Positions 3,362 to 40,895 are shown, numbered from the stretch's first letter. The stretch: DNA of 64,000 nucleotides from an uncultured Candidatus Saccharibacteria bacterium (GCA_964619585.1 CAZUCO010000003.1:11304-75303), one strand, 5' to 3'. A program made the numbers and translations. Notes: generated from the letters alone by a model not told the origin.

Positions 3362-4879
3362 ATGTCAAAGGTAGCTCGAGTTATTTCCGTAGCTCCGATC
3401 GGCTTCGAAGGAAGCATCATCGATGTTGAAAGTGACATAAAACGTGGCTTACCTTCACTCCAGATCGTCGGCATGGGCAACAAAGCTATTGAGGAGGCCA
3501 AGGAGCGAGTTCGTAGCGCAGTTACTAATTCTTTGCTCGACTTCCCACCTCAAAAGATTATCATCAACCTGGCGCCTGCTGAACTTCCCAAAGATGGCTC
3601 AGCTTATGATTTACCTATTGCTTTAGCCATTCTTGTTTCAAGCGGTCAACTCAACCAAGAACAGGTCAACGCCGCTGTCTTTGTTGGTGAATTATCCCTC
3701 GATGGTGCACTCCGACCTATAAGAGGCGTGATATCAATCGCTGAGACAGCACGAAAAACTGGCATTACAAAAGTATTTATGCCGAAAGAAAATGCCGAGC
3801 AAGCCTCATTGATTGAAGGAATTGAGATCGTCCCCGTAACATCACTTAGCCAGCTCTTCCTGCATCTTAAACAAGAGCAGATTATCACCCCTGCGGCCAC
3901 TCGTCCTCATAGCGAGACGCCCCCTACTGGAGGGCCCCTTATTGATGATGTCCACGGACAAGAACAAGCAAAACGAGCCATACTTATTGCTGCAGCTGGC
4001 CGGCACAACATACTATTAACAGGCCCTCCAGGCTCAGGTAAGACAATGCTGGCCAACACGCTCACGTCTCTTCTACCGCCACTATCAAACAGCGAGAAGG
4101 TCGCAGTCACCAAGCTACACAGTCTTGCAGGAAACGTCGTTGGTGACATCATCACCACTCGACCATTTCGGAGCCCGCATCACACTTCGAGTCAAGTTGC
4201 ACTGATAGGCGGCGGTGCTCGACCAAAGCCAGGTGAGATAAGTCTGGCACACCTTGGTGTGCTTTTTCTTGATGAGATTCCAGAATACCCACGCAGCAGT
4301 CTCGAGGCGCTAAGGCAGCCGCTTGAGGATAAGCAGATCTCAATCAGTCGTGCAAATGGTCATGTGCACTATCCGGCAGACTTCATGCTTGTTGCTACAA
4401 TGAATCCATGTCCTTGTGGATTCTTTGGTGACGCCACTAAAGAATGCCAGTGTAGCTCTACACAGATAATCTCTTACCAACGTAGGCTGTCCGGCCCTCT
4501 GATGGATCGCATCGATCTTGTCATACCAGTTGAGCGAGTAGTCACTCACACTCTCCTTGATCGCGAGCCATCGACTAATTCACAACACATATACTTCCAA
4601 GAGTTGCTCAACAAGGCAGTTTTGGCTCAGAATAACAGGTATAGCCGTGATGATTTTTACAACAATAATCTGTCTTCACGAGATATCAAGCGACGCATTT
4701 CCCTCTCAAGCTCGGTACAAGATCTCTTAAATGATGCCGCGGAGAAGCTCAATATTAGTGCGCGAAGTTACTTCAAGATTATCAAGGTAGCTCAAACAAT
4801 TGCCGATCTCGATGGCACTGGTATTATCGCCAAAAAACACATTGCTGAAGCCCTACAATACCGCTCCATGACCTCTTGA
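3362..4879 (+). CDS. comM: Mg-chelatase-like AAA+ ATPase, YifB/ComM family
   Basis: MSKVARVISVAPIGFEGSIIDVESD is a typical ComM N-terminus. Walker A is GPPGSGKTM, and GVLFLDEIPEY and a C-terminal Mg-chelatase domain are present. The ORF-track start at 3296 (GTG) abuts the tmRNA 5' end, so I moved the start to the ATG at 3362. Confidence 0.85.
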   Translation: MSKVARVISVAPIGFEGSIIDVESDIKRGLPSLQIVGMGNKAIEEAKERVRSAVTNSLLDFPPQKIIINLAPAELPKDGSAYDLPIALAILVSSGQLNQEQVNAAVFVGELSLDGALRPIRGVISIAETARKTGITKVFMPKENAEQASLIEGIEIVPVTSLSQLFLHLKQEQIITPAATRPHSETPPTGGPLIDDVHGQEQAKRAILIAAAGRHNILLTGPPGSGKTMLANTLTSLLPPLSNSEKVAVTKLHSLAGNVVGDIITTRPFRSPHHTSSQVALIGGGARPKPGEISLAHLGVLFLDEIPEYPRSSLEALRQPLEDKQISISRANGHVHYPADFMLVATMNPCPCGFFGDATKECQCSSTQIISYQRRLSGPLMDRIDLVIPVERVVTHTLLDREPSTNSQHIYFQELLNKAVLAQNNRYSRDDFYNNNLSSRDIKRRISLSSSVQDLLNDAAEKLNISARSYFKIIKVAQTIADLDGTGIIAKKHIAEALQYRSMTS

Positions 4880-4955
4880 AACGGATAGACTAGTGTGATA
4901 TGATTGGGAACGAGAAGGTTCAGCAATACGACCTCTTTACAAAACTAAGGGAGAA

Positions 4956-5471
4956 ATAAACGTCATCAACCAACAAGTTCGCATTAACTCAAGTATCCGA
5001 TCAAACGAACTACGTGTGATAGGACCTAGCGGCGAACAGCTTGGTATCATGTCTCGAGCCGACGCTTTACGTCAAGCCGAGAGCCATGGTGTTGATCTCG
5101 TGGAAATATCTCCAAACGCTAACCCTCCTGTAGCAAAGATCATTGACTGGGGTAAATACCAATACCAGAAGATGAAAGAACAGCAGAAGAGTAAGCAGAA
5201 GAGTAAGCAAGCTGAACTTAAACAGATGCGCTTTGGTCTCAAGATTGGTAGTGGTGATCTTGAAATCAAACTCCGCAAGATTCGAGCCTTCCTAGCCGAT
5301 GGCCACAAAGTCCGCATACAAATCTTTTATCGCGGACGTGAAATGGCACACAAGGAACTAGGCTACGATATGATTAACAAAATTATCGGATTACTCGAAG
5401 ATGACGCAGTCGTTGAGCAACAGCCTATTATGGCCGGTCGAAACTTGAGTATTACCGTAAGGAGTAAATAA
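4956..5471 (+). CDS. infC: Translation initiation factor IF-3, with a non-AUG start
   Basis: The track ORF (GTG at 5016) cuts off the conserved N-terminal IRSNELRVIG segment. In-frame upstream codons back to the stop at 4896-4898 include no ATG, GTG or TTG, only ATA (4956), ATC (4965) and ATT (4983). The SD AAGGGAG lies at 4947-4953. The exact start is uncertain. Confidence 0.8.
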   Translation: MNVINQQVRINSSIRSNELRVIGPSGEQLGIMSRADALRQAESHGVDLVEISPNANPPVAKIIDWGKYQYQKMKEQQKSKQKSKQAELKQMRFGLKIGSGDLEIKLRKIRAFLADGHKVRIQIFYRGREMAHKELGYDMINKIIGLLEDDAVVEQQPIMAGRNLSITVRSK

Positions 5472-20441: not shown

Positions 20442-21350
20442 ATGTATATGTCTGAGTTAATTCTCGATTTTGTCGAATCGCTCGAAGTCGAGGGTGGACG
20501 ATCGTCAAAAACGGCCGAAAATTATCGACTCTATCTTGAGCGCTTCACGCAATTCAGCGACGATATAAAGGTTGATAAAATTACTACGGAGGTCATCCGC
20601 CGCTATCGGCTATGGTTGAATCGTCATAAAAACAACAACGGTGAAACACTCTCAACCCTTACCCAAAGCTACCACTTGATCGCTCTGAGAGGGTTCCTGA
20701 AGTATCTTTCTGAACGTAACATCGAATCACTTTCGGCCGACAAGATCCATCTCCCAAAGGTAAGTCGCAAACAAGTTACCTTCCTCCATTTTGAAGAAGT
20801 ACAGCAACTTGTTGACGCCATCGACCTAAACACTGAAGAGGGCCTACGCGACCGTGCGATTGTCGAGCTACTCTTTTCGAGTGGCCTCCGTGTCTCAGAG
20901 CTCGTTAATCTTGACCGAGGTCATGTCAATACCAAGCGCCGGGAATTCATGGTACGTGGGAAAGGCCAAAAGGATCGCCCTGTCTTTGTGAGTGATGCCG
21001 CTGCAAAATGGGTCGAAGAATATCTAGCAAAACGAATCGACAACCTTCCACCACTTTTTCTAAGTTATAGTCGCAACAATATTGCGTCTCGTAGTGGAGA
21101 TTACCGTCGGCTCGGTGCTCGCAGCGTACAGCGTATGGTCAACAAGTACGCTCGTCTCGCCGGTATCACCAAACATGTTTCGCCACATACGATGCGTCAT
21201 AGTTTCGCAACTGATCTCCTCATGAATGGCGCCGATCTACGTAGTGTACAGTCTATGCTTGGGCACAGTAATATCTCGACGACACAAGTCTACACTCATG
21301 TCACTGATGAGCACCTCCGTGAAATACACGAGAAGTTTCATAGTAGCTAG
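20442..21350 (+). CDS. xerC: Tyrosine recombinase XerC/XerD family
   Basis: N-terminal SAM-like domain. The C-terminal catalytic residues are ...RVSEL..., HTMRHSFATDLL and LGHSNISTTQVYTHV. Confidence 0.8.
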   Translation: MYMSELILDFVESLEVEGGRSSKTAENYRLYLERFTQFSDDIKVDKITTEVIRRYRLWLNRHKNNNGETLSTLTQSYHLIALRGFLKYLSERNIESLSADKIHLPKVSRKQVTFLHFEEVQQLVDAIDLNTEEGLRDRAIVELLFSSGLRVSELVNLDRGHVNTKRREFMVRGKGQKDRPVFVSDAAAKWVEEYLAKRIDNLPPLFLSYSRNNIASRSGDYRRLGARSVQRMVNKYARLAGITKHVSPHTMRHSFATDLLMNGADLRSVQSMLGHSNISTTQVYTHVTDEHLREIHEKFHSS

Positions 21351-32940: not shown

Positions 32941-35088
32941 TTAGAATCGTGGCGGCAATTCACTCACGTAGTCAGTAGTGGCGACTGGCGTGCCGCTACC
33001 ACTGCCGAACGACGATAGATGTGCATCGGGTCGCAGATTAAATACTTCTGCGGATTTGTTCATACTGTTTTTCTTCTCCTCATTAGAAGCACCGTCAAGC
33101 GTACTTCCTGCGGTTCGGAAAAGATAGATTTTTCCAGCGTACACGGGACCATTAAATCGAAGCTGCGTACCACAAACCTCTGTTGAGAGCTTTGCCCCTG
33201 GATTATTACGATCTATTTGCGAACATGTATTGATCCAACCTTCATCACTTTCCGTGCCTGTAGTTATCAGCCATGGATCAATCTGTTCAACGTTTTCACT
33301 TATATCAAAGCTCTTCGCAAAGATCCGTACTCGAGGGAGCTTTGAGATACCGGTGTAACTATTTGCATATTTCAGATCATTACTGATAGTAAATATACCG
33401 TCACACACGTAATCGTTACGTCCAGTCAAGTTTACATTGCCACTACTACAGACTGAGGTGGCACCCTGTGGCGTCGTAGGGCGATTCGTCACCACACTGC
33501 CAAAGCAGCCATAACTTGGCGATGTAGCTCCTATCGCAGCACATGAATCATTAATATTGCTAAAGGTTAGGAGATTTCTGTTCGCTAGAGTCGAGTTACT
33601 GCCTTTATTAAGTCCAGCGCCAGATGCCATTCCACTGGTTGCTATGCCGCTCTTAGTCTCGTTGTGAATAAGCCCATTAGTGAATACACCGTACTCACCC
33701 CAGCTGCCATATATACCATTAACACCGGCTTGGGTAATAACTGTCAGACTTGTCGATATAGCTAAACTGCCGCCTGGCAGACTTGCGTTGCCCACAACAC
33801 GCAGGTCACCACCCCATACCTGAACAGAGGGTTGTCTACCCGACATTGAACAAGTCATATTACTATGACGCCACCCGCTCTTTTGAGGGGTAGGGTTCCG
33901 GACAGAAGTCATATAGCAGATCACTTCACCTAAAGCTGCGTCTGGCTCATCCGAAAAGTTACCGGTATCTGCTGGCGATGCAGGGCCACTCTTGATTGCG
34001 TCGTCACATGTCACCATATCTCCAGAAGCCCGAGCGGCTGCCGTAGCATAGGTACATGGGCTACTAGAAGAATCAGTATAGGCGGCATTTTGTGCAGTGT
34101 CCTTTGGCCAGGTCTTAAATTTCAGCCGCGCGACCTCCCATGGATGGCTACCATACACATCACCCGACCCAGGGGCCTGTGTTACCCTACCTCTAGTCTG
34201 GAACTTCATCGGGTCAGTGGAGTAGCGCGGGATTGAGTTGATAGTCGGAACTAAATTATAGGGGCCAGAGTATCTCCATGAGTAGTTAACTGTCACCGTT
34301 CGACAAACACTCGTGTCTGACTGCCCAGCGCCTTGACCTGTATACCAAAAATACTGACAAATATCGCCGCTTAGACTGTCACTACCACTCGACCTGGTGC
34401 CACTATGTACCTTGCCCGTAAGACGAGGGACAGGTAGTGAACGGACTTGATCATTGTTGCTAGGGTTTCCACTCGCAGGCCGGTCTTTCTTCTGCATAAT
34501 CAACGATTTGAATATACCCGTTGTGCAGTCATGGTTATGACCTGGTATGTTACGGTGTCGTTTATCAGTTGGCGATTCTGCTGCTTTACCATTAACTGCG
34601 CACCCCAACGACGGGTTTACCTTGTCATTACTCGTACCTTTGTCGATGTACTTTACGCAGTCCCAGGCAATATTCTCAAGTACCCCACCAACATTTGTTT
34701 GTCCACCTCCATAATATCCAGCGTTTGGACAAAATTTGGGACTAAAAATAGCATAGGATTCAGTGCTCTTGTCACACTCGCGCCATTGTACATTCGTTAT
34801 AAAGTTCAGCGTGCTTTCTGGTGAGCCAATAGTGATATCAGCACCCGTGATCCAGGCTTCAAAATTTGGCTTATCGCGTCCTTTTGAACAGAGCTTACCG
34901 CTAGGACTAGTTGGTGATACACTGTCCACGCGGGCAGTTAAAGTACCTCCGTTAGATGTGATTATCGTATTAGCTTGTGCAACTTCAGTCGGCTGCGATG
35001 CCAACAGAAAAGAAAAAAAAGCCACACTAGCTGCCACGATGAGAAAAATTCGTGATAGCCAGTTTGTTTTCAGCCTTCGGATAAGCAT
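32941..35088 (-). CDS. Large secreted Cys-rich protein of unknown function, first gene of the T4P operon
   Basis: Start at MLIRRLKTNWLSRIFLIVAASVAFFSFLLASQPTEVAQA (signal peptide or anchor). 715 aa with 18 Cys by my count, rich in Ser, Gly, Thr and Asn. I recognise no family motif. The stop is 53 nt upstream of the pilM start. Confidence 0.6.
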   Translation of the reverse strand: MLIRRLKTNWLSRIFLIVAASVAFFSFLLASQPTEVAQANTIITSNGGTLTARVDSVSPTSPSGKLCSKGRDKPNFEAWITGADITIGSPESTLNFITNVQWRECDKSTESYAIFSPKFCPNAGYYGGGQTNVGGVLENIAWDCVKYIDKGTSNDKVNPSLGCAVNGKAAESPTDKRHRNIPGHNHDCTTGIFKSLIMQKKDRPASGNPSNNDQVRSLPVPRLTGKVHSGTRSSGSDSLSGDICQYFWYTGQGAGQSDTSVCRTVTVNYSWRYSGPYNLVPTINSIPRYSTDPMKFQTRGRVTQAPGSGDVYGSHPWEVARLKFKTWPKDTAQNAAYTDSSSSPCTYATAAARASGDMVTCDDAIKSGPASPADTGNFSDEPDAALGEVICYMTSVRNPTPQKSGWRHSNMTCSMSGRQPSVQVWGGDLRVVGNASLPGGSLAISTSLTVITQAGVNGIYGSWGEYGVFTNGLIHNETKSGIATSGMASGAGLNKGSNSTLANRNLLTFSNINDSCAAIGATSPSYGCFGSVVTNRPTTPQGATSVCSSGNVNLTGRNDYVCDGIFTISNDLKYANSYTGISKLPRVRIFAKSFDISENVEQIDPWLITTGTESDEGWINTCSQIDRNNPGAKLSTEVCGTQLRFNGPVYAGKIYLFRTAGSTLDGASNEEKKNSMNKSAEVFNLRPDAHLSSFGSGSGTPVATTDYVSELPPRF

Positions 35089-35150
35089 ATGTATTATATT
35101 AAACAGCAAGTGCAACGTACATGCAAACACATGTGGTGATTCCCTGAAAT

Positions 35151-35205
35151 GAAGCAACCCCACCCCCCGTGCGATGATGCACGAGAGGCGGGGTTTGGTT
35201 GCTTC
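35151..35205 (-). terminator. GC-rich hairpin (terminator-like, no U-tract) after the island-1 gene
   Basis: GAAGCAACC..CCCC.CGTGC-gatgat-GCACG..GGGG..GGTTGCTTC, 5 nt after the TGA. Confidence 0.5.
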
Positions 35206-35210
35206 CAGGC

Positions 35211-35906
35211 TCACTGCAGCCGACGGGCGGCGCAGTACGAGGTCGCTTCCCGAGCATCCCGGAGCTGCGCCCGGTACGCGACGACGTCCGACTTCGCGTG
35301 CCTCACCATGACCTTGGCGCCGTTGAGCTGGACCTTGGCCTTCCGGAGGGCGACCTTGGCCCTGCGGACCTTCTTGGCCGCGCGGTGCTTCTTGCCCTTC
35401 TTGGCCTTGCTCAGCGCCTTCTGGGCCTTGACGACGGCCCGCTTGGCCTTGTTGAACTGAGCCATGGCCTTGTTGAACTGAGCCATGGCGTTGACGAGAA
35501 GCTGCTGCTTCGTGGTGGCGTCGTCGTTGCCGCCGCCACTGGACGAGTAGTACTCCACCGTCTCAGTCCGGGGGTTGGCAGTGCCGACCCCGTAGGTGAT
35601 GGTGACGAAGTTCGTGGCCTGGTAGGCCTCGTCGGCACACAGGACGACTCCGTTGCCGTAGCCGACGACTGTCGCCGACTGGGAGCCGTAGGTCGGATCG
35701 CTGTACTTGATCTCGATCTTGGTGGTGTAGTCCCGCACGTCACTCTGGAACGTGAGCCGGTCCGACGGAGCGCTCTGCCCCATCACGTACTTGCCCGCGA
35801 CGTACTGGACGCAGCCCGGGCCACACGGAGTGGCTCGGGCAGGCACTGTGCCGTAGGTCGTCAGCCCGAAGGCCAAAGCAACCAAGAGCACGAGAAATCT
35901 CCTCAT
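35211..35906 (-). CDS. Exported protein with a Lys/Ala-rich helical C-terminal tail (high-GC, foreign-looking)
   Basis: The signal peptide is MRRFLVLLVALAFGLTTYGTVPARA. Third codon positions are almost all G/C. The SD GGAAGGA lies 6 nt before the ATG. Competing ORFs on other frames have L/R/G/V/D-rich shadow composition. Confidence 0.7.
   Translation of the reverse strand: MRRFLVLLVALAFGLTTYGTVPARATPCGPGCVQYVAGKYVMGQSAPSDRLTFQSDVRDYTTKIEIKYSDPTYGSQSATVVGYGNGVVLCADEAYQATNFVTITYGVGTANPRTETVEYYSSSGGGNDDATTKQQLLVNAMAQFNKAMAQFNKAKRAVVKAQKALSKAKKGKKHRAAKKVRRAKVALRKAKVQLNGAKVMVRHAKSDVVAYRAQLRDAREATSYCAARRLQ
35445..35486. repeat. Perfect 21-bp tandem duplication inside the island-1 gene
   Basis: GGCCTTGTTGAACTGAGCCAT occurs twice (35445-35465 and 35466-35486) and encodes AMAQFNK-AMAQFNK. 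Confidence 0.95.
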
Positions 35907-36196
35907 GTTGGTCCTTCCGGTAGGTAGGATGAATCGTAGAGCCTGAAAGTTAAATGTGCCCCCGCGGAAAGCGGAATTACATCAACGCTTCCAGGACACT
36001 GCGATCCATACGGTGTACAGATTACCTAAATTATCTCATAAAGCTACACAAATAGAAAGCACAAGTAGTTTGATTATTCAAGGATTAAATCTACAACGAA
36101 GCTGTGGATACTTATTCAGATCACTTAACAAATAAGCCAAATCCCCTTACGCTTCATTGGATACGAACGGATATGGTGATCCTACCCCTGTTTTGT

Positions 36197-36202
36197 TATA
36201 AT
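36197..36202 (+). promoter_or_regulatory. Extended -10 promoter of ychF (leaderless or near-leaderless)
   Basis: TGTTATAAT, with only 8 nt between the -10 element and the ATG at 36211. No SD is present. Confidence 0.5.
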
Positions 36203-36210
36203 ACTCACAT

Positions 36211-37290
36211 ATGTCACTCTCGATCGGCATCGTAGGTCTCCCCAACGTCGGCAAGTCGACGCTTTTTAATGCGCTTACTAATAGCGAGATTTTGGCCGCC
36301 AACTATCCATTCGCTACGATCGAGCCAAATACTGGTATCGTGCCAGTGCCCGACGAGCGACTCAACGTCCTGAAAGATATATATAACTCTGAGAAGATCC
36401 TCCCTGCAACAGTCACATTTGTTGACATTGCCGGTCTGGTGGCAGGTGCAAGCAAAGGAGAAGGTCTCGGCAACAAATTTCTCGCCAATATTCGTCAGTG
36501 TGATGCGATTGTACACATCGTACGTGCTTTTCATAGCAGCGATATCCTCCGGCACGACGACAGTGAGGTAAACCCCGAAGCAGATATTGAGATCATCAAT
36601 ACCGAGCTTATCTTGGCCGATCTAGAAACACTGCAAAAACGCGTACCTGCCCTGCAAAAAGAAGCCAAGGCCAAACCAGCCGCACGTGAAAAACTCAGCT
36701 ACCTCGAGAGTCTTATCCGTCATCTCGAGACAGGCACGCCACTATCTGGCCTCCCTTCTCTTGATACTGAAGCAATCGCAGACCTCCACCTTCTAACCGC
36801 CAAGCCGGTTATCTACGCATTCAATGTTGACGAGGCGACACTGGTTGATAGCGAAGCACAGGCAAAGTTAAACACTCTCGTGGCGCCAGCCCGAACACTT
36901 TTTGTGTGCGCCAAGCTCGAAGAAGAACTCAAAGGCCTCGATGAAAGCGATGCCAAAGAACTGCTTGAGAGCTATGGAGTAGAAGATACTGGTCTTGTAC
37001 AGATGATCCATGCCGCATATGAGACGCTGGGACTACAAAGCTATCTGACTGCCGGACCAAAGGAAGTGCGAGCTTGGACGATCAAGCGAGGCTACACTGC
37101 ACCACAAGCTGCAGGGGTGATCCACACTGATTTTGAACGAGGTTTTATTGCTGCACAAATTGTTGATTATGATGATCTCGTGACTGCCGGCAGCGAACAA
37201 GCAGCCAAGGCAGCTGGAAAAGTACGCACTGAGGGCAAAGACTATGTCATGCAGCCCGGCGATGTCGTAGAATTCAGATTTAACGTTTAA
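36211..37290 (+). CDS. ychF: Ribosome-binding ATPase YchF (Obg-family)
   Basis: IGIVGLPNVGKSTLFNALT, a C-terminal TGS-like domain (VRAWTIKRGYTAPQAAGVIHTDFERGFI) and normal GC (31/60 in 36241-36300). Confidence 0.95.
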   Translation: MSLSIGIVGLPNVGKSTLFNALTNSEILAANYPFATIEPNTGIVPVPDERLNVLKDIYNSEKILPATVTFVDIAGLVAGASKGEGLGNKFLANIRQCDAIVHIVRAFHSSDILRHDDSEVNPEADIEIINTELILADLETLQKRVPALQKEAKAKPAAREKLSYLESLIRHLETGTPLSGLPSLDTEAIADLHLLTAKPVIYAFNVDEATLVDSEAQAKLNTLVAPARTLFVCAKLEEELKGLDESDAKELLESYGVEDTGLVQMIHAAYETLGLQSYLTAGPKEVRAWTIKRGYTAPQAAGVIHTDFERGFIAAQIVDYDDLVTAGSEQAAKAAGKVRTEGKDYVMQPGDVVEFRFNV

Positions 37291-37325
37291 GGAGGGGTTC
37301 ACCCGCCCCCTCCGTTTCATTTTTG
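37291..37325 (+). terminator. Intrinsic terminator of ychF
   Basis: GGAGGGG-ttcacccgc-CCCCTCC followed by GTTTCATTTTT. Confidence 0.65.
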
Positions 37326-37430
37326 GAGTAAATCCAAAAAATCACTCCACCCTCAAGTCTCCATCGCCTATGGCGACTGTCGACTTGCTCAGTTTACACT
37401 TCGTTATAAAAATTCTTTAGAAATTAAACT

Positions 37431-38392
37431 AGCGGAGCGTCCGCCAGAGCAGACCGGCCATTTCTGGCTGATCCACTCCGGCGAACACCCCGCGAACATC
37501 ACGACCCCGGCAGGCAGTACAGCCTGGCATCCTTCCGCGGAAGGCGGTACTTCCCGGTCGCAGTGATAGCCACCCGGAGGACCTGCTCACCGGGCGCCAG
37601 CTCATCGTCGAGCACGAGCACCAGATCACCGTCGCCGAAGCTGAGGTCGTAGCGTCGCACGACCACCTGACCGTTGGCCTGCTTGATCCGCACCCGGAAC
37701 TTCGACTTCGGCGTCAGGTTGACAGTACGGGGCCGCTCCTGCAGTGAGAAGTGGTACTCCCGGATCTGACACTCACCGGGCGGGATCGAGTTCGTCTTCC
37801 AGACGAACCGCTTGGTCCACCTGGCCGGCCGCCACCAGTCGAAGACGATCGGCTGCTTGGTCAGGGTCCGCTTGGTAGCCGGATCGATGACCAAGATGTA
37901 CCACTCGACACCACTCCCCCGCTTGATCGCGGGGAGGTGGTACACCATGGCCGTGTTGGCCAGTTGAGGAACGGTGAGATCGTCAGGACCGAAGTCGCTC
38001 TCCGATACACCGAACGCGAGCTGGACGGAGTAGTCGCCGGTGACCACCCGCACACGCGGGCGGCCTTTCCGGTCAACTTTCATCGGTACCAGCACGTCGG
38101 GGAGATGGGACGAGTCGTCGGTAGCCGACGACACCGCAGCCACCTTGGCCATGATCACTGGCTGGCCCGTCTCACGCAGAGACGAACACATTGCAACCAG
38201 TAGCGCTGCTACAAGCAACAACGCTCCGATCATGGTGAGGCGAATCTTGGTTGAGCGAGTCATCACTGACTCACCACCTTTCTTGGGTGTTGAGGGGGAA
38301 GGTGATGTAAAAACGCGCTCAGAAAAACTTCCGAGCACTTCTTTGCGCGCGTTTACAGTCACGGCACAACGAGATTAATTATAGCATAATCT
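37431..38392. other. High-GC compositional island 2 (single-gene cassette)
   Basis: 36/60 G+C in 37921-37980. Shadow ORFs occur on both strands. Imperfect direct repeats, TTCTTTAGAAATTAAA (37412-37427) and TCTTTTAGAAAGTAAA (38390-38405), lie at the edges. Confidence 0.7.
37499..38263 (-). CDS. Membrane-anchored / lipoprotein-like exported protein of unknown function (high-GC, foreign-looking)
   Basis: The start is at MTRSTKIRLTMIGALLLVAALLVAMCSS. The SD AAAGGTGGTGA lies 7 nt upstream. Codon usage is G/C3-rich. The track's longer start at 38362 has no SD. Confidence 0.65.
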   Translation of the reverse strand: MTRSTKIRLTMIGALLLVAALLVAMCSSLRETGQPVIMAKVAAVSSATDDSSHLPDVLVPMKVDRKGRPRVRVVTGDYSVQLAFGVSESDFGPDDLTVPQLANTAMVYHLPAIKRGSGVEWYILVIDPATKRTLTKQPIVFDWWRPARWTKRFVWKTNSIPPGECQIREYHFSLQERPRTVNLTPKSKFRVRIKQANGQVVVRRYDLSFGDGDLVLVLDDELAPGEQVLRVAITATGKYRLPRKDARLYCLPGS

Positions 38393-38423
38393 TTTAGAAA
38401 GTAAATATATGGAAAAGGTCCGG

Positions 38424-38456
38424 CATCTCGTCTCGCAACAAGACGAACGAGATGCT
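38424..38456 (-). terminator. Hairpin terminator after tlyA
   Basis: GCATCTCGT...ACGAGATGC overlaps the stop and is followed on the minus strand by CGGACCTTTTCC. Confidence 0.5.
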
Positions 38457-39168
38457 AAACGATTCTCAGAAGATAGAACCGCTCTCGATTACCCTTAGCG
38501 CCGGCAACTTCACTATCCTTTTTGTCTATAGTCATAAAGTAACGCTTCGACCAAGCTTCAAAATCGCGCAAGATAGCACGACGAACTGCATCGTTTTTGA
38601 TAACACCTTTGTTGATCTGCTCCTTACCAGCCTCAAACTGCGGCTTCAGCATAGCAACTATCTTCGTATCACGATTAGAGATTGCAGCAATGTGAGGCAA
38701 AATCTCGCGTAAACTGATAAAGCTCACATCCATAACGACCACGTCTGGAGGTACAGCAGGAGTAAAGTCCCGAATGTCCGTCTTTTCATGAAGCTCGATT
38801 CGCTTGTCACCACGGAGACTCGGATGAAGCTGCTCGGTGCCAACATCGACAGCAATCGACTTAGTTGCCCCGTGTTGCAAAGCATAGTCCGTAAATCCGC
38901 CCGTGCTACTTCCCACGTCGAGAATCACTTTACCACCAAAATCTACTCCGAGTGCTTCCGCAACACTTGCAAGCTTGAGACCTGCTCTACTAACATATCG
39001 CTCACTGGCCGTAAGCTTTACGGCAATCTCTTTATCTACCATATATCCTGGCTTTGTCACTGTTTTATTATTGACCATCACCTGACCAAGCCGTATCAGA
39101 TTAGCCGCCTGTGAACGTGACTGAACAAGTTGTTTCGTGACGAGCAGTTCATCGAGCCGTTGTCTCAT
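38455..39168 (-). CDS. tlyA: TlyA-family rRNA 2'-O-methyltransferase
   Basis: N-terminal S4 domain (RLDELLVTKQLVQSRSQAANLIRLGQVMVN) and an FtsJ-type SAM motif (ILDVGSSTGGFTD). Confidence 0.85.
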   Translation of the reverse strand: MRQRLDELLVTKQLVQSRSQAANLIRLGQVMVNNKTVTKPGYMVDKEIAVKLTASERYVSRAGLKLASVAEALGVDFGGKVILDVGSSTGGFTDYALQHGATKSIAVDVGTEQLHPSLRGDKRIELHEKTDIRDFTPAVPPDVVVMDVSFISLREILPHIAAISNRDTKIVAMLKPQFEAGKEQINKGVIKNDAVRRAILRDFEAWSKRYFMTIDKKDSEVAGAKGNRERFYLLRIV

Positions 39169-40895
39169 GGGTACATAATCCTCTCAATATCTCTAGTAAT
39201 CTCGGCAATTTTAGCATACGAATACCCCTTGGTCATTACCACAATAACGTACGTCCCTTTAGGATGACGAACGATTGCAGCATCATGTACATAATCCCAC
39301 AAAAAACCAACTTTGTCGTAAACAGTGCCACCAGCACCAGCTGGAACACCAGATCTATATGGATGTACACTGAGCGAGTGCAGCAGGCGGTCACGTTGAC
39401 TCGCCGACATCAGACTTCCCTGCTCAAGCCTCGTCATATAGTTCATCAAGTCGCCAGCAGTCGTATGATTTGCAGTAGGGTTTGTAAATGTAGTTCCTCT
39501 CGAAAAGCCCTGCCCCCAGATAAATGCGTTTAGTTTGTCTCGTCCAGCTTGCTTGATCCACGCCTCAGCACAAGGGTTGGTGCTTGCAATCGTCATCCGA
39601 TCAAAACAGCCAGACACGGTCGTGTCCAACCACGGATCACCCCAATGTATCTTACCTTTGTTCATCTGATCAAACAGCCACAATGCCACATAGAGTTTGT
39701 ACGTACTTGCGCTCACCGTACTTTCATAAGCACGGCCACCCGCTGTCCATCCCTTACCACCGAGCTGTTTAACTGCTATACGAATATTCTGTGTACTCGT
39801 CGTGTACTGAACATACGCCGACAGACCAGCCTGCGACGAACTATAGCGACGTTCATACACCTCTGGAGACGGAACTGAAACTAACAATACATCAAGTGCA
39901 ACGCTTGGCTCTCCACTCTCTATCGCATTAGTTAGTTTACGAGCCAAGTCTTCTGCATTGACGGCTTGGCCAAGCTTGCCCTTTTGACGTGTGCTCACAG
40001 CCCCATCGACCAGAACAACTCGCGTTGGTGTAGGTTGTTTGCCCATCTTTGCCGTTAGACCAGAAGCATAGGCCTTTAGTGCTGATTGATTAATGGAAAG
40101 CAGATAATGATCGCCTTCACGCTTCACCACCAACCAAGAAATGATCGCCTTCTTATCAGGTATGATCTTTACACCATTTGGTGCGAGTAATTGATACGAG
40201 CGAGTAATGATTGTCTCAGCCTTGTGTTTGATAGGTTCGACAGCACTGTCCGATACAGTTGGCGCCTGCTTCGATGACGGCACCGTAACCTTTGTTTCGC
40301 CCAGATGAAAGCGCGCACCAGTCAGTGCCGCAGTAACACTATCGACTGTGACTTTTTGGCCGTCTTTCGCTGCTGTCACGACTAGCTGATTATTCTTGAT
40401 GGCTAAGCTCGCATCTTTAGGTGGTGTTGATAGCAACGCAGCAAGCTTTTTGGCACTAGCCCCCAGCTGCTCAGACGCAAATACTACCTTATATTCATCC
40501 ACTACGGGTCGCTGCCAAAACACAGACAAAGGAATCAGCCGTTGCGTCAGTGGATAATCTATTAGGCCCTGGACTTGACTGTCGACATCAACTGATGCAC
40601 CTGCAACACTGAGTAATTGCGTTGTTTCTGTTGAAGATGTCGTAAGTCGGACACTACTCTGCTGGAATTTCTTCTGTAAATCAGCCGCTAGCTTGACCTT
40701 ACTCACACCGCCGACGGAACGACCAGCAAGCGATGCATATGGTACGGCAACGTGGTCCGGATAGCATAGTTGCCACACAACCTGTCCGCCAGCCAAAACC
40801 AGCAGCACACAAACAGGAACCAACCAGTATCGTTTCTTCCAATGATGTTGTCGTGTTGGTTTTGTTAGCTGCAGAGCTCGCTGCTTAGCGCTCAT
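39165..40895 (-). CDS. Membrane-anchored serine hydrolase (class A beta-lactamase / PBP-like C-terminal domain)
   Basis: N-terminal TM helix. The C-terminal domain carries STYK (SxxK), STN (SxN) and DKVG (KTG-like). A 4-nt overlap with tlyA suggests an operon. Confidence 0.55.
   Translation of the reverse strand: MSAKQRALQLTKPTRQHHWKKRYWLVPVCVLLVLAGGQVVWQLCYPDHVAVPYASLAGRSVGGVSKVKLAADLQKKFQQSSVRLTTSSTETTQLLSVAGASVDVDSQVQGLIDYPLTQRLIPLSVFWQRPVVDEYKVVFASEQLGASAKKLAALLSTPPKDASLAIKNNQLVVTAAKDGQKVTVDSVTAALTGARFHLGETKVTVPSSKQAPTVSDSAVEPIKHKAETIITRSYQLLAPNGVKIIPDKKAIISWLVVKREGDHYLLSINQSALKAYASGLTAKMGKQPTPTRVVLVDGAVSTRQKGKLGQAVNAEDLARKLTNAIESGEPSVALDVLLVSVPSPEVYERRYSSSQAGLSAYVQYTTSTQNIRIAVKQLGGKGWTAGGRAYESTVSASTYKLYVALWLFDQMNKGKIHWGDPWLDTTVSGCFDRMTIASTNPCAEAWIKQAGRDKLNAFIWGQGFSRGTTFTNPTANHTTAGDLMNYMTRLEQGSLMSASQRDRLLHSLSVHPYRSGVPAGAGGTVYDKVGFLWDYVHDAAIVRHPKGTYVIVVMTKGYSYAKIAEITRDIERIMYP

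Follow-up and report, generated by a model that had tools for sequence, protein, structure and literature searches.

Genes A and B lie on either side of the housekeeping gene ychF in a 64,000-nt stretch of DNA from an uncultured Candidatus Saccharibacteria bacterium (GCA_964619585.1 CAZUCO010000003.1:11304-75303), hereafter the window. Both have an unusually high G+C content at third codon positions (GC3), and an earlier note on this DNA had read them as two foreign cassettes. Our data suggest that A and B are probably resident, Saccharibacteria-specific surface-protein cassettes whose GC3 is maintained in place. More tentatively, Saccharibacteria may carry a lineage-restricted class of surface-protein genes in which synonymous sites are actively held at GC3 0.75-0.9 over deep time and which are built for hyper-structured, long-lived mRNAs; we regard this broader claim as possible rather than probable. 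The two units and the gene between them are laid out as follows:

35144..35209, minus strand: terminator hairpin of unit A, a long G+C-rich stem (17 pairs in the scan) just past the stop codon
35211..35906, minus strand: gene A, 231 amino acids, GC3 0.89, with a Sec-type signal peptide
35907..36039, minus strand: promoter and 5' leader of unit A, with an extended -10 element, TGAGATAAT, at 36030-36038
36211..37290, plus strand: ychF, a native housekeeping GTPase/ATPase gene (TIGR00092)
37429..37494, minus strand: terminator hairpin of unit B, with a stem of about 25-29 bp, past the stop codon
37499..38263, minus strand: gene B, 254 amino acids, GC3 0.80, with an N-terminal signal/anchor helix and two beta-sandwich (FN3/Ig-like) domains
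38264..38405, minus strand: promoter and leader of unit B, with the -35 element TTTACT at 38400-38405 and TG-n-TATAAT at 38378-38386

The G+C content is 0.48 across the whole window and rises to 0.59-0.65 in two blocks, at about 35100-36000 and 37350-38250, which flank ychF, a gene of normal GC. GC1/GC2/GC3 (the values at the three codon positions) are 0.58/0.47/0.89 for gene A, 0.62/0.45/0.80 for gene B and 0.64/0.39/0.47 for ychF, and GC3 of five further native genes is 0.42-0.49. The excess in A and B is almost wholly third-position and synonymous, with GC1 and GC2 normal. We took as a reference the 60 non-overlapping open reading frames (ORFs) of at least 100 amino acids within the window. 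The 58 other than A and B have a GC3 of 0.457 ± 0.052 (maximum 0.575), and A and B, with z-scores of 8.3 and 6.5, are the sole outliers within the 64 kb. By our own arithmetic, two genes drawn at random from the 60 would bracket a single gene with a chance of 58/1770, or about 0.03. These values bear out the earlier observation that high-GC single-gene blocks flank ychF. That both genes lie on the minus strand is equally true, but it carries little information, since about 50 of the 60 ORFs in the window do so.

Genes A and B use the codons typical of any high-GC organism (CGG, TCG, CCG, ACC, GCC, GGC, GTC, AAG and GAG); the base A occupies only 0.03-0.06 of third positions, and C and G are both enriched, equally. 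Ordinary translational selection is ruled out as the cause, because the presumably highly expressed L20, efp and pilin genes have a GC3 of only 0.34-0.49. The coding pattern GC3 > GC1 > GC2 and ratios of nonsynonymous to synonymous divergence (dN/dS) of 0.38 for A and 0.45 for B argue that both coding sequences are real. We also considered dual coding through the long antisense ORFs on the plus strand (35199-35927 and 37751-38203), which we judged to be a by-product of high GC.

The abrupt compositional boundaries might suggest an assembly chimera, in which contaminating high-GC reads were joined into a Saccharibacteria contig. However, these boundaries coincide with promoters and terminators, and the same arrangement, with the same genes, neighbours and GC3 contrast, is found in independent NCBI, Logan, JGI and ENA assemblies. 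Mis-assembly, which the earlier note had listed as an alternative, is thereby excluded for practical purposes.

The distribution of the two families is a further line of evidence. Searches of 5.8 billion protein clusters, 1.84 billion representative proteins and the JGI metagenome, viral and plasmid collections recovered no homologue of A or B except on Saccharibacteria-like contigs. The searched protein collections include metagenomes that yielded several of the B-bearing contigs. In the 5.8 billion clusters, the only relative of gene A is P0001, which comes from a Saccharimonadales metagenome-assembled genome (locus L001), and a word-indexed search gave gene B one relative besides itself. 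A full HMMER search of the 1.84 billion representatives with a B profile returned 10 proteins, one of which is the window's own. Neither the A alignment nor the conserved DNA pattern of the A leader matched any JGI metagenome contig, and scans of viral contigs and plasmids for A and B were likewise empty. A comparison of donor taxa, by which the earlier note would have traced the origin of the genes, had nothing to compare: no actinobacterial homologue of either gene was found in these collections.

Conserved neighbours accompany both families, the two relevant ones in the window being:

32941..35088, minus strand: p717, encoding a secreted protein of about 715 amino acids without a Pfam match, GC3 0.43 (native)
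38455..39168, minus strand: tlyA, of the S4/FtsJ rRNA methyltransferase type, native, the conserved convergent partner of ychF

All nine other B relatives (9/9) lie on Saccharibacteria-like contigs, with S6-SSB-S18, efp, tlyA and a peptidoglycan-binding/beta-lactamase-like gene as neighbours. Wherever the flanks are visible, the B gene lies behind tlyA (in L083, behind the neighbouring beta-lactamase-like gene) and/or is convergent with ychF. Unit A lies directly upstream of p717 in the same orientation, and in L001 a full-length p717 orthologue (L001 10671-12824; 46-49% identical) likewise lies downstream of the A relative, separated from it by a spacer of 118 bp. This pair adjoins neither ychF nor pilus genes in L001. 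A and B are not related and do not move as a set; three of the B-bearing loci (L085, L092 and L095) show the side upstream of ychF, and none of these has an A-family gene. The two units differ in distribution, which leaves the proposal that one larger island was later split around ychF without support, and the idea that the two products act as a pair finds no support because the families do not co-occur.

ychF and tlyA are convergent neighbours in 47/47 Saccharibacteria loci, comprising the window and those loci from L002-L044, L085, L086, L090-L092 and L095 that contain both 3' ends. The gap between these 3' ends spans 5 bp to 6.5 kb; it is at most 60 bp in 13 of the 47 junctions, which are thus empty, 60-600 bp in 8 and more than 600 bp in 26. 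The cargo includes pilin genes (L018 and L042), sortase genes with large secreted proteins (L002, L030, L034 and L085), a polytopic membrane protein (L012 and L032) and orphan genes, and it is GC3-rich in part only. The ychF|tlyA junction serves Saccharibacteria generally as a slot for variable surface genes. The earlier suggestion of a local hotspot for host DNA holds insofar as the site is variable, while a host origin of A and B is unsupported. ychF itself is native, as the earlier note had assumed, with normal GC3, conserved synteny at all of these loci and 65-85% identity within Saccharibacteria.

The reading offered first was that a competent epibiont had captured A and B, recently and independently, from its high-GC host (Actinomycetota) or another high-GC bacterium at such a hotspot. 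Such captures would account for the GC3 of 0.80-0.89, the actinobacterium-like codon usage, the long G+C-rich terminator hairpins, the patchiness of both families and a site that is empty in 13/47 relatives and filled with varied cargo in 26/47; one item of cargo, in L004, is in fact related to Bosea plasmid genes. However, the lack of homologues beyond Saccharibacteria-like contigs in the collections searched is difficult to reconcile with a host donor. Because the B relatives with visible flanks occupy the same slot, many independent captures into one site would be needed. Moreover, native-type promoters and leaders are conserved along with the genes, the pairing of A with p717 and even the spacer are conserved in L001, and the GC3 of B tracks the background of the recipient genome. 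With both families syntenic and GC3-rich in distant genomes, we consider recent capture of host DNA quite unlikely.

Mobility signatures are also missing. No integrase, transposase, att site or tRNA target was found for the A and B units, no tRNA gene lies nearer than 16 kb to the region and no terminal or flanking inverted repeats were found around the units, in agreement with the earlier note. No tyrosine recombinase was found within 14 kb (an Xer-type ORF at 20442-21350 was noted by eye only). The sole candidate is a short repeat:

37411..37428 and 38388..38405, no strand assigned: 18-nt imperfect direct repeat, 83% identity, AATTCTTTAGAAATTAAA / AATCTTTTAGAAAGTAAA

Its copies lie at the exact two edges of unit B and are not obvious in L002. 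It may be a chance occurrence in AT-rich DNA, as many similar short two-copy families exist in the region.

More importantly, the GC3 excess persists across lineages. In eleven loci, the B-family GC3 is 0.73-0.87 versus 0.37-0.77 for the flanks, depending on the genome. In eight genomes, it correlates with the local background (r = 0.82, p = 0.013), and its shift over that background on a logit scale is nearly constant (1.18 ± 0.21), which is what is expected of a constant gene-specific push atop the mutational bias of each genome. The A relative in L001 has a GC3 of 0.82-0.85 in a genome with a GC of 0.46. The B family is old, with pairwise protein identities of 26-51% compared with 66-88% for the flanking tlyA and efp. 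Between the window and L002, the synonymous sites of ychF and tlyA are saturated (synonymous divergence, dS, of 2.5 or more); therefore, a neutral import dating from their common ancestor would be expected to have drifted to the native composition by now, but its high GC3 persists undiminished.

The dN/dS of gene A was obtained against its L001 relative, to which it is 65% identical, and the corresponding value for ychF is 0.05. A and B are thus under purifying selection that is relaxed relative to ychF. At identical amino acids, the same codon is used at a frequency of 0.69 in A (0.54 expected) and 0.62 in B (0.47 expected; z = 3.8 each), the expectation being that for saturated sites under the codon usage of the gene itself, and flanking genes show a smaller excess. 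The GC excess is limited to the coding sequences and the terminator stems: promoter and leader regions have a GC of 0.42-0.47, and spacers between adjoining GC3-rich genes in other genomes 0.45-0.50. A multi-gene block imported from a high-GC donor would bring GC-rich spacers.

Leaders and 3' hairpins are better conserved than coding sequences in both families. The promoter and leader of unit A, of native-like GC (0.47), are highly conserved with L001 starting at the -10 box; the leader is about 117 nt long, structured (z = -2.5 versus shuffled controls) and ends in a Shine-Dalgarno (SD) sequence, GGAAGGA. The unit A hairpin (-43.9 kcal/mol, z = -6.6) retains its structure in L001, apparently via paired changes, although the alignment was judged by eye. 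In unit B, the promoter has the layout TTTACT-16 nt-TATAAT with an upstream TG. Six B loci have a nearly invariant -10 region, ATG(C/G)TATA(A/G)T, and four of these share an upstream TATTTAC. The B leader (38267-38371; about 105 nt, folding z = -3.4) is far more conserved with L002 than the coding sequence is. Within this leader, a terminator-like hairpin precedes five U (38315-38338), and CACCUU can pair with AAGGUG in a way that might hide the SD, so that the leader may serve as an attenuator or a translational switch. The unit B hairpin (-53.6 kcal/mol, z = -8.5) has 25 predicted pairs, 5 of which show compensatory changes on both sides. Its arm GCGG(A/G)GTGTTCGCCGGAG is kept among B loci with only about 30% protein identity, and the arm GCGGAGTGTTCGCCGGAG is common to five such loci. 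We rejected the possibility that this hairpin is a dispersed repeat or miniature inverted-repeat transposable element, as it is present in a single copy in the window. The product of each gene has a hydrophobic N-terminus, and the SD and downstream hairpin that the earlier note described for each unit are confirmed.

Conserved ends around a divergent interior are also what exchange would leave behind, and we rank exchange as the main rival. Natural transformation and homologous recombination may swap cassettes among Saccharibacteria, with the conserved ends or the conserved flanking genes as anchors and an unsampled Saccharibacteria lineage of much higher GC as the source, which implies that each copy is young in its present genome and not yet ameliorated. 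Synonymous divergence of A and B is below that of the flanking genes, as this predicts, and type IV pilus genes lie nearby. Moreover, similarity among B genes does not follow that of their flanks: the B genes of L083 and L084 align over >200 residues with that of the window and the B gene of L085 over only 147, while the housekeeping genes of L085 are much closer to those of the window. B proteins are mosaic in their domains, and in two related genomes, L095 and L086, ychF and B are jointly GC3-rich. The ychF genes concerned (1481-2560 and 4409-5242, respectively) have a GC3 of 0.75-0.77 that is uniform along the gene and above that of the neighbours; they are of the Saccharibacteria type, with 70-78% identity versus <=65% to Actinomycetota. 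A native housekeeping gene next to a B cassette can thus acquire the same GC3 enrichment.

However, B stands above the background even in the most GC-rich carriers (0.87 versus about 0.70 in L084), and native GC3 is near 0.8 in no Saccharibacteria locus examined, so that no reservoir genome is known. Members that are only 26-51% identical imply an old pool, which must reside somewhere. The native-like GC of the spacers between adjoining GC3-rich genes also argues against exchange, as does the B allele P0006, which is identical on 19 contigs from different samples and is stable within a species. On balance, we consider exchange from such a lineage unlikely, if less so than capture from a host.

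Recombination could also act on composition in another way, and bacterial GC3 has been reported to be linked with it. In GC-biased gene conversion (gBGC), allele exchange in hypervariable cassettes would create mismatched heteroduplexes in the divergent coding sequence, whose repair favours G/C. This would agree with sharp boundaries that coincide with the variable part, the equal enrichment of C and G, the constant logit shift among genomes and the spread of GC3 enrichment to ychF in L095 and L086. However, p717 is equally divergent with a normal GC3, spacers and flanks show no gradient, and the GC3 rise of 0.35-0.45 is far beyond reported bacterial gBGC effects. In addition, no extra copy of A or B, including partial silent copies, was found in the window by blastn and tblastx, and P0006 is invariant on its 19 contigs. 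It seems very unlikely that biased conversion explains the excess. As p717 evolves fast with a normal GC3, fast evolution alone does not explain it either.

RNA folding provides evidence of a different kind. We compared coding sequences with controls in which synonymous codons were shuffled within each gene, leaving protein and codon usage unchanged. Eight B-family coding sequences were more stable than their shuffled versions, with z-scores of -4.7, -2.1, -5.4, -5.6, -2.7, -5.0, -1.6 and -6.7 (mean -4.2), whereas ten native genes, some of them from more GC-rich genomes, had a mean z of -0.3 (Mann-Whitney p = 0.0003). Since B and native genes differ relative to codon-shuffled versions of themselves, high GC3 alone does not cause the excess structure. 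The coding sequence of gene A in the window has z = -2.6, and two further GC3-rich genes (L039) have z = -3.2 and -1.0. Excess folding, structured leaders and giant 3' hairpins together point to selection on the transcript.

Taken together, we favour in-place maintenance because the excess is restricted to coding sequence, the logit shift is constant and the folding test separates B from native genes. A and B are two unrelated, self-contained transcription units for predicted exported or surface proteins, each of which runs from a strong extended -10 promoter through an SD-containing structured leader of 105-117 nt and a coding sequence that opens with a signal to an exceptionally long terminator hairpin. 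According to this model, they would be accessory genes that are resident in these genomes and change rapidly in protein sequence, rather than newly inserted host DNA, and their actinobacterium-like codon usage would be a long-lived property of the gene families. The data show the composition and anatomy of the units, their distribution and synteny, the conservation of their ends and the excess RNA folding; from these we infer that GC3 is held up in place, and the expression level and the protein functions are likewise inferences. In the best-supported version, selection at synonymous sites would favour a highly structured, presumably long-lived mRNA; an alternative route to maintenance would be locus-specific biased repair after allele exchange. 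Selection on the mRNA in place is the only model with direct support, albeit of an indirect kind, namely the folding test.

Several observations weigh against in-place maintenance. The codon usage of A and B is exactly that expected from a donor of 63-68% GC and, taken alone, is a classic signature of gene transfer. Neither family occurs among 42 Saccharibacteria loci recovered by a ychF scan of GTDB species-representative genomes, and both are patchy; the junction is empty at 13 of 47 loci, yet the closest relatives, L002 and L085, carry B-family genes there. The L001 relative of A shows no excess folding (z = -0.3). p717 diverges as fast as A and B and yet has a normal GC3. The same-codon excess may reflect either synonymous constraint or a more recent shared ancestor through lateral exchange, which fit equally well. 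The profile aligns with some B members in one half alone, be it the N-terminal or the C-terminal one, which is the mosaicism mentioned above. A 530-residue orphan of GC3 0.78 upstream of ychF in L004 (7926-9518) is 29-32% identical to megaplasmid proteins of Bosea (Alphaproteobacteria); therefore, some cargo near ychF is truly foreign. Finally, the structure models are limited: that of gene A is poor overall, with a predicted local distance difference test (pLDDT) score of 57, a confident helical hairpin and a poorly predicted beta domain, and the AlphaFold2 model of gene B is modest, with a mean pLDDT of 67 and values of 80-94 in the N-terminal domain.

Both products probably act at the cell surface. 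Gene A, gene B and p717 gave nothing above cut-off in Pfam, NCBIfam or PHROGs, or with a PDB sequence profile. The gene A protein has a predicted Sec-type signal peptide (…PARA|TP), followed by an acidic beta domain of about 105 residues with a CGPGC motif. Its C-terminal part is a very basic (isoelectric point 11.8), Lys/Ala-rich antiparallel helical hairpin of about 100 residues, with 29 Lys/Arg versus 3 Asp/Glu. Foldseek matched the model only to generic coiled-coil hairpins such as colicin receptor-binding domains (E >= 3e-3), and the SEC10/PgrA surface-exclusion domain (TIGR04320) reached 21.5 bits against a cut-off of 70, in the coiled-coil region only. We suggest that the product may be a secreted, polycationic helical stalk that binds polyanions (cell wall or DNA) near the pilus. 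The basic helical region contains a duplication:

35444..35485, minus strand: perfect 21-bp tandem duplication within gene A, encoding AMAQFNK twice

The duplication is missing from the L001 relative and is a recent in-frame expansion of the helical region.

p717 is the first gene of a type IV pilus cluster in the window, in the order p717, pilM, two ORFs in the pilN/O position (without Pfam hits), pilB, pilT, pilC, the pilin gene and pilD. Its promoter shares a stretch of about 30 identical nt with that of L001 despite the divergence of the proteins. The C-terminal half of p717 shows about 30% conservation in many Saccharibacteria loci near ychF. The p717 start codon lies 4 nt past a TATAAT box (35086-35110), and its mRNA may be leaderless or nearly so. 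A search of Rfam over 34500-39500 at E ≤ 1 gave no match.

The gene B start is most likely the ATG at 38263 (254 residues), and a GTG one codon earlier is possible. Foldseek returned only generic tandem FN3/Ig matches for its model, and these are weak (best E-value 3e-3). Most B members keep a cysteine after the hydrophobic segment, but none has a canonical lipobox: the region reads LVAMC in the window, LYAC in L002 and G/A-Q-C in most other members. Judging from the sequence, cleavage at a downstream AxA site is as plausible as lipoprotein processing. We found no LPXTG motif or hydrophobic tail that would make the protein, which ends in …YCLPGS, a sortase substrate; a sortase gene precedes B in L002 and L085 and not in the window. 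The product may be a membrane-tethered or secreted tandem beta-sandwich protein resembling adhesins. Further GC3-rich genes (0.63-0.84) adjoin B in other genomes (L002 1453-3592, L085 3699-6516, L084 5594-6034 and L089 2-442); they encode a secreted protein of 553-721 residues without a family match and a small, divergent class-F-like sortase. This arrangement suggests a three-gene surface module, of which the window retains B alone.

ychF matches TIGR00092 with E = 7e-135 and 449.8 bits, against a curated cut-off of 279.2, and has its own terminator hairpins (37291-37341). Its TGTTATAAT box lies 8 nt ahead of the ATG (36192-36213), unlike the leaders of 105-117 nt with a clear SD in A and B, and its mRNA may also be leaderless or nearly so. 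Identity to Actinomycetota is about 60%. These were the next-best relatives after Saccharibacteria at 38/38 loci (L045-L082; about 59-63%) among those kept from species-representative genomes, which could reflect sampling, shared ancestry or an old transfer.

In epibiotic bacteria of the candidate phyla radiation (CPR), outliers in GC or codon usage are routinely read as host-to-symbiont transfer. The two strongest outliers in these 64 kb have no donor, keep conserved positions and are GC3-rich in long-diverged lineages, and such genes can mislead composition-based transfer calls. A and B are, in familiar terms, compositionally atypical accessory genes in a variable surface-gene locus; what is unusual is a composition that is persistent, donor-less and tied to transcript structure. 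The literature that we searched holds no description of GC3-rich gene families in Saccharibacteria. If maintenance over deep time is real, a composition that looks like host transfer would be an endogenous, selected property of the genes. If this applied genome-wide, composition-based estimates of gene transfer in Saccharibacteria would be inflated, and a gene-specific force on synonymous sites in tiny genomes would be measurable as a logit shift of about 1.2-2. The genes so marked, which encode exported proteins beside a type IV pilus cluster and within a variable surface slot, would be candidates for the host-contact surface. The ychF|tlyA junction also provides a reusable landmark for locating variable surface genes in Saccharibacteria.

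Gene transfer from host to epibiont has been proposed for Saccharibacteria and Actinomycetota. Like horizontally acquired islets, A and B are single-gene blocks with a GC3 of 6-8 standard deviations above the genome, patchy in distribution and located at a site that is empty in some relatives. Unlike such islets, they lack donor homologues, mobility genes and att sites, their regulatory DNA is native-like, and the families keep their positions and high GC3 across lineages whose flanks are synonymously saturated. A and B also resemble integron cassettes in being single-gene units, each followed by an imperfect palindrome. However, integrase, attI and a cassette array are all missing, the units have promoters of their own, their hairpins are unrelated to each other, and one of these hairpins, unlike attC, is conserved in sequence as a terminator or binding site would be.

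Variable surface loci also offer parallels. The pneumococcal capsule locus, which lies between the conserved genes dexB and aliA, is exchanged by transformation. The Saccharibacteria locus shares with it conserved anchors (ychF/tlyA at 47/47 loci), diverse surface cargo and cassettes with conserved ends and a divergent interior, but here the cargo amounts to one to three genes and the GC3 excess has no counterpart in the capsule locus. The antigenic-variation locus vls of Borrelia has a G+C content far above the genome average. Like A and B, it encodes surface protein and keeps a GC well in excess of the rest of the genome, persistently and with no foreign donor. In contrast to vls, no array of silent cassettes or repeats was found in the 64 kb, and a B allele that is identical on 19 contigs gives no sign of rapid switching.

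Long-lived mRNAs are known for abundant envelope proteins, including ompA with its 5' leader and S-layer genes with long structured leaders. In common with these mRNAs, A and B combine strong promoters and long structured 5' leaders with very stable 3' hairpins, and their products are exported. They differ in that the whole coding sequence is GC3-enriched and over-structured, while other presumably highly expressed genes of the window are not GC3-rich.

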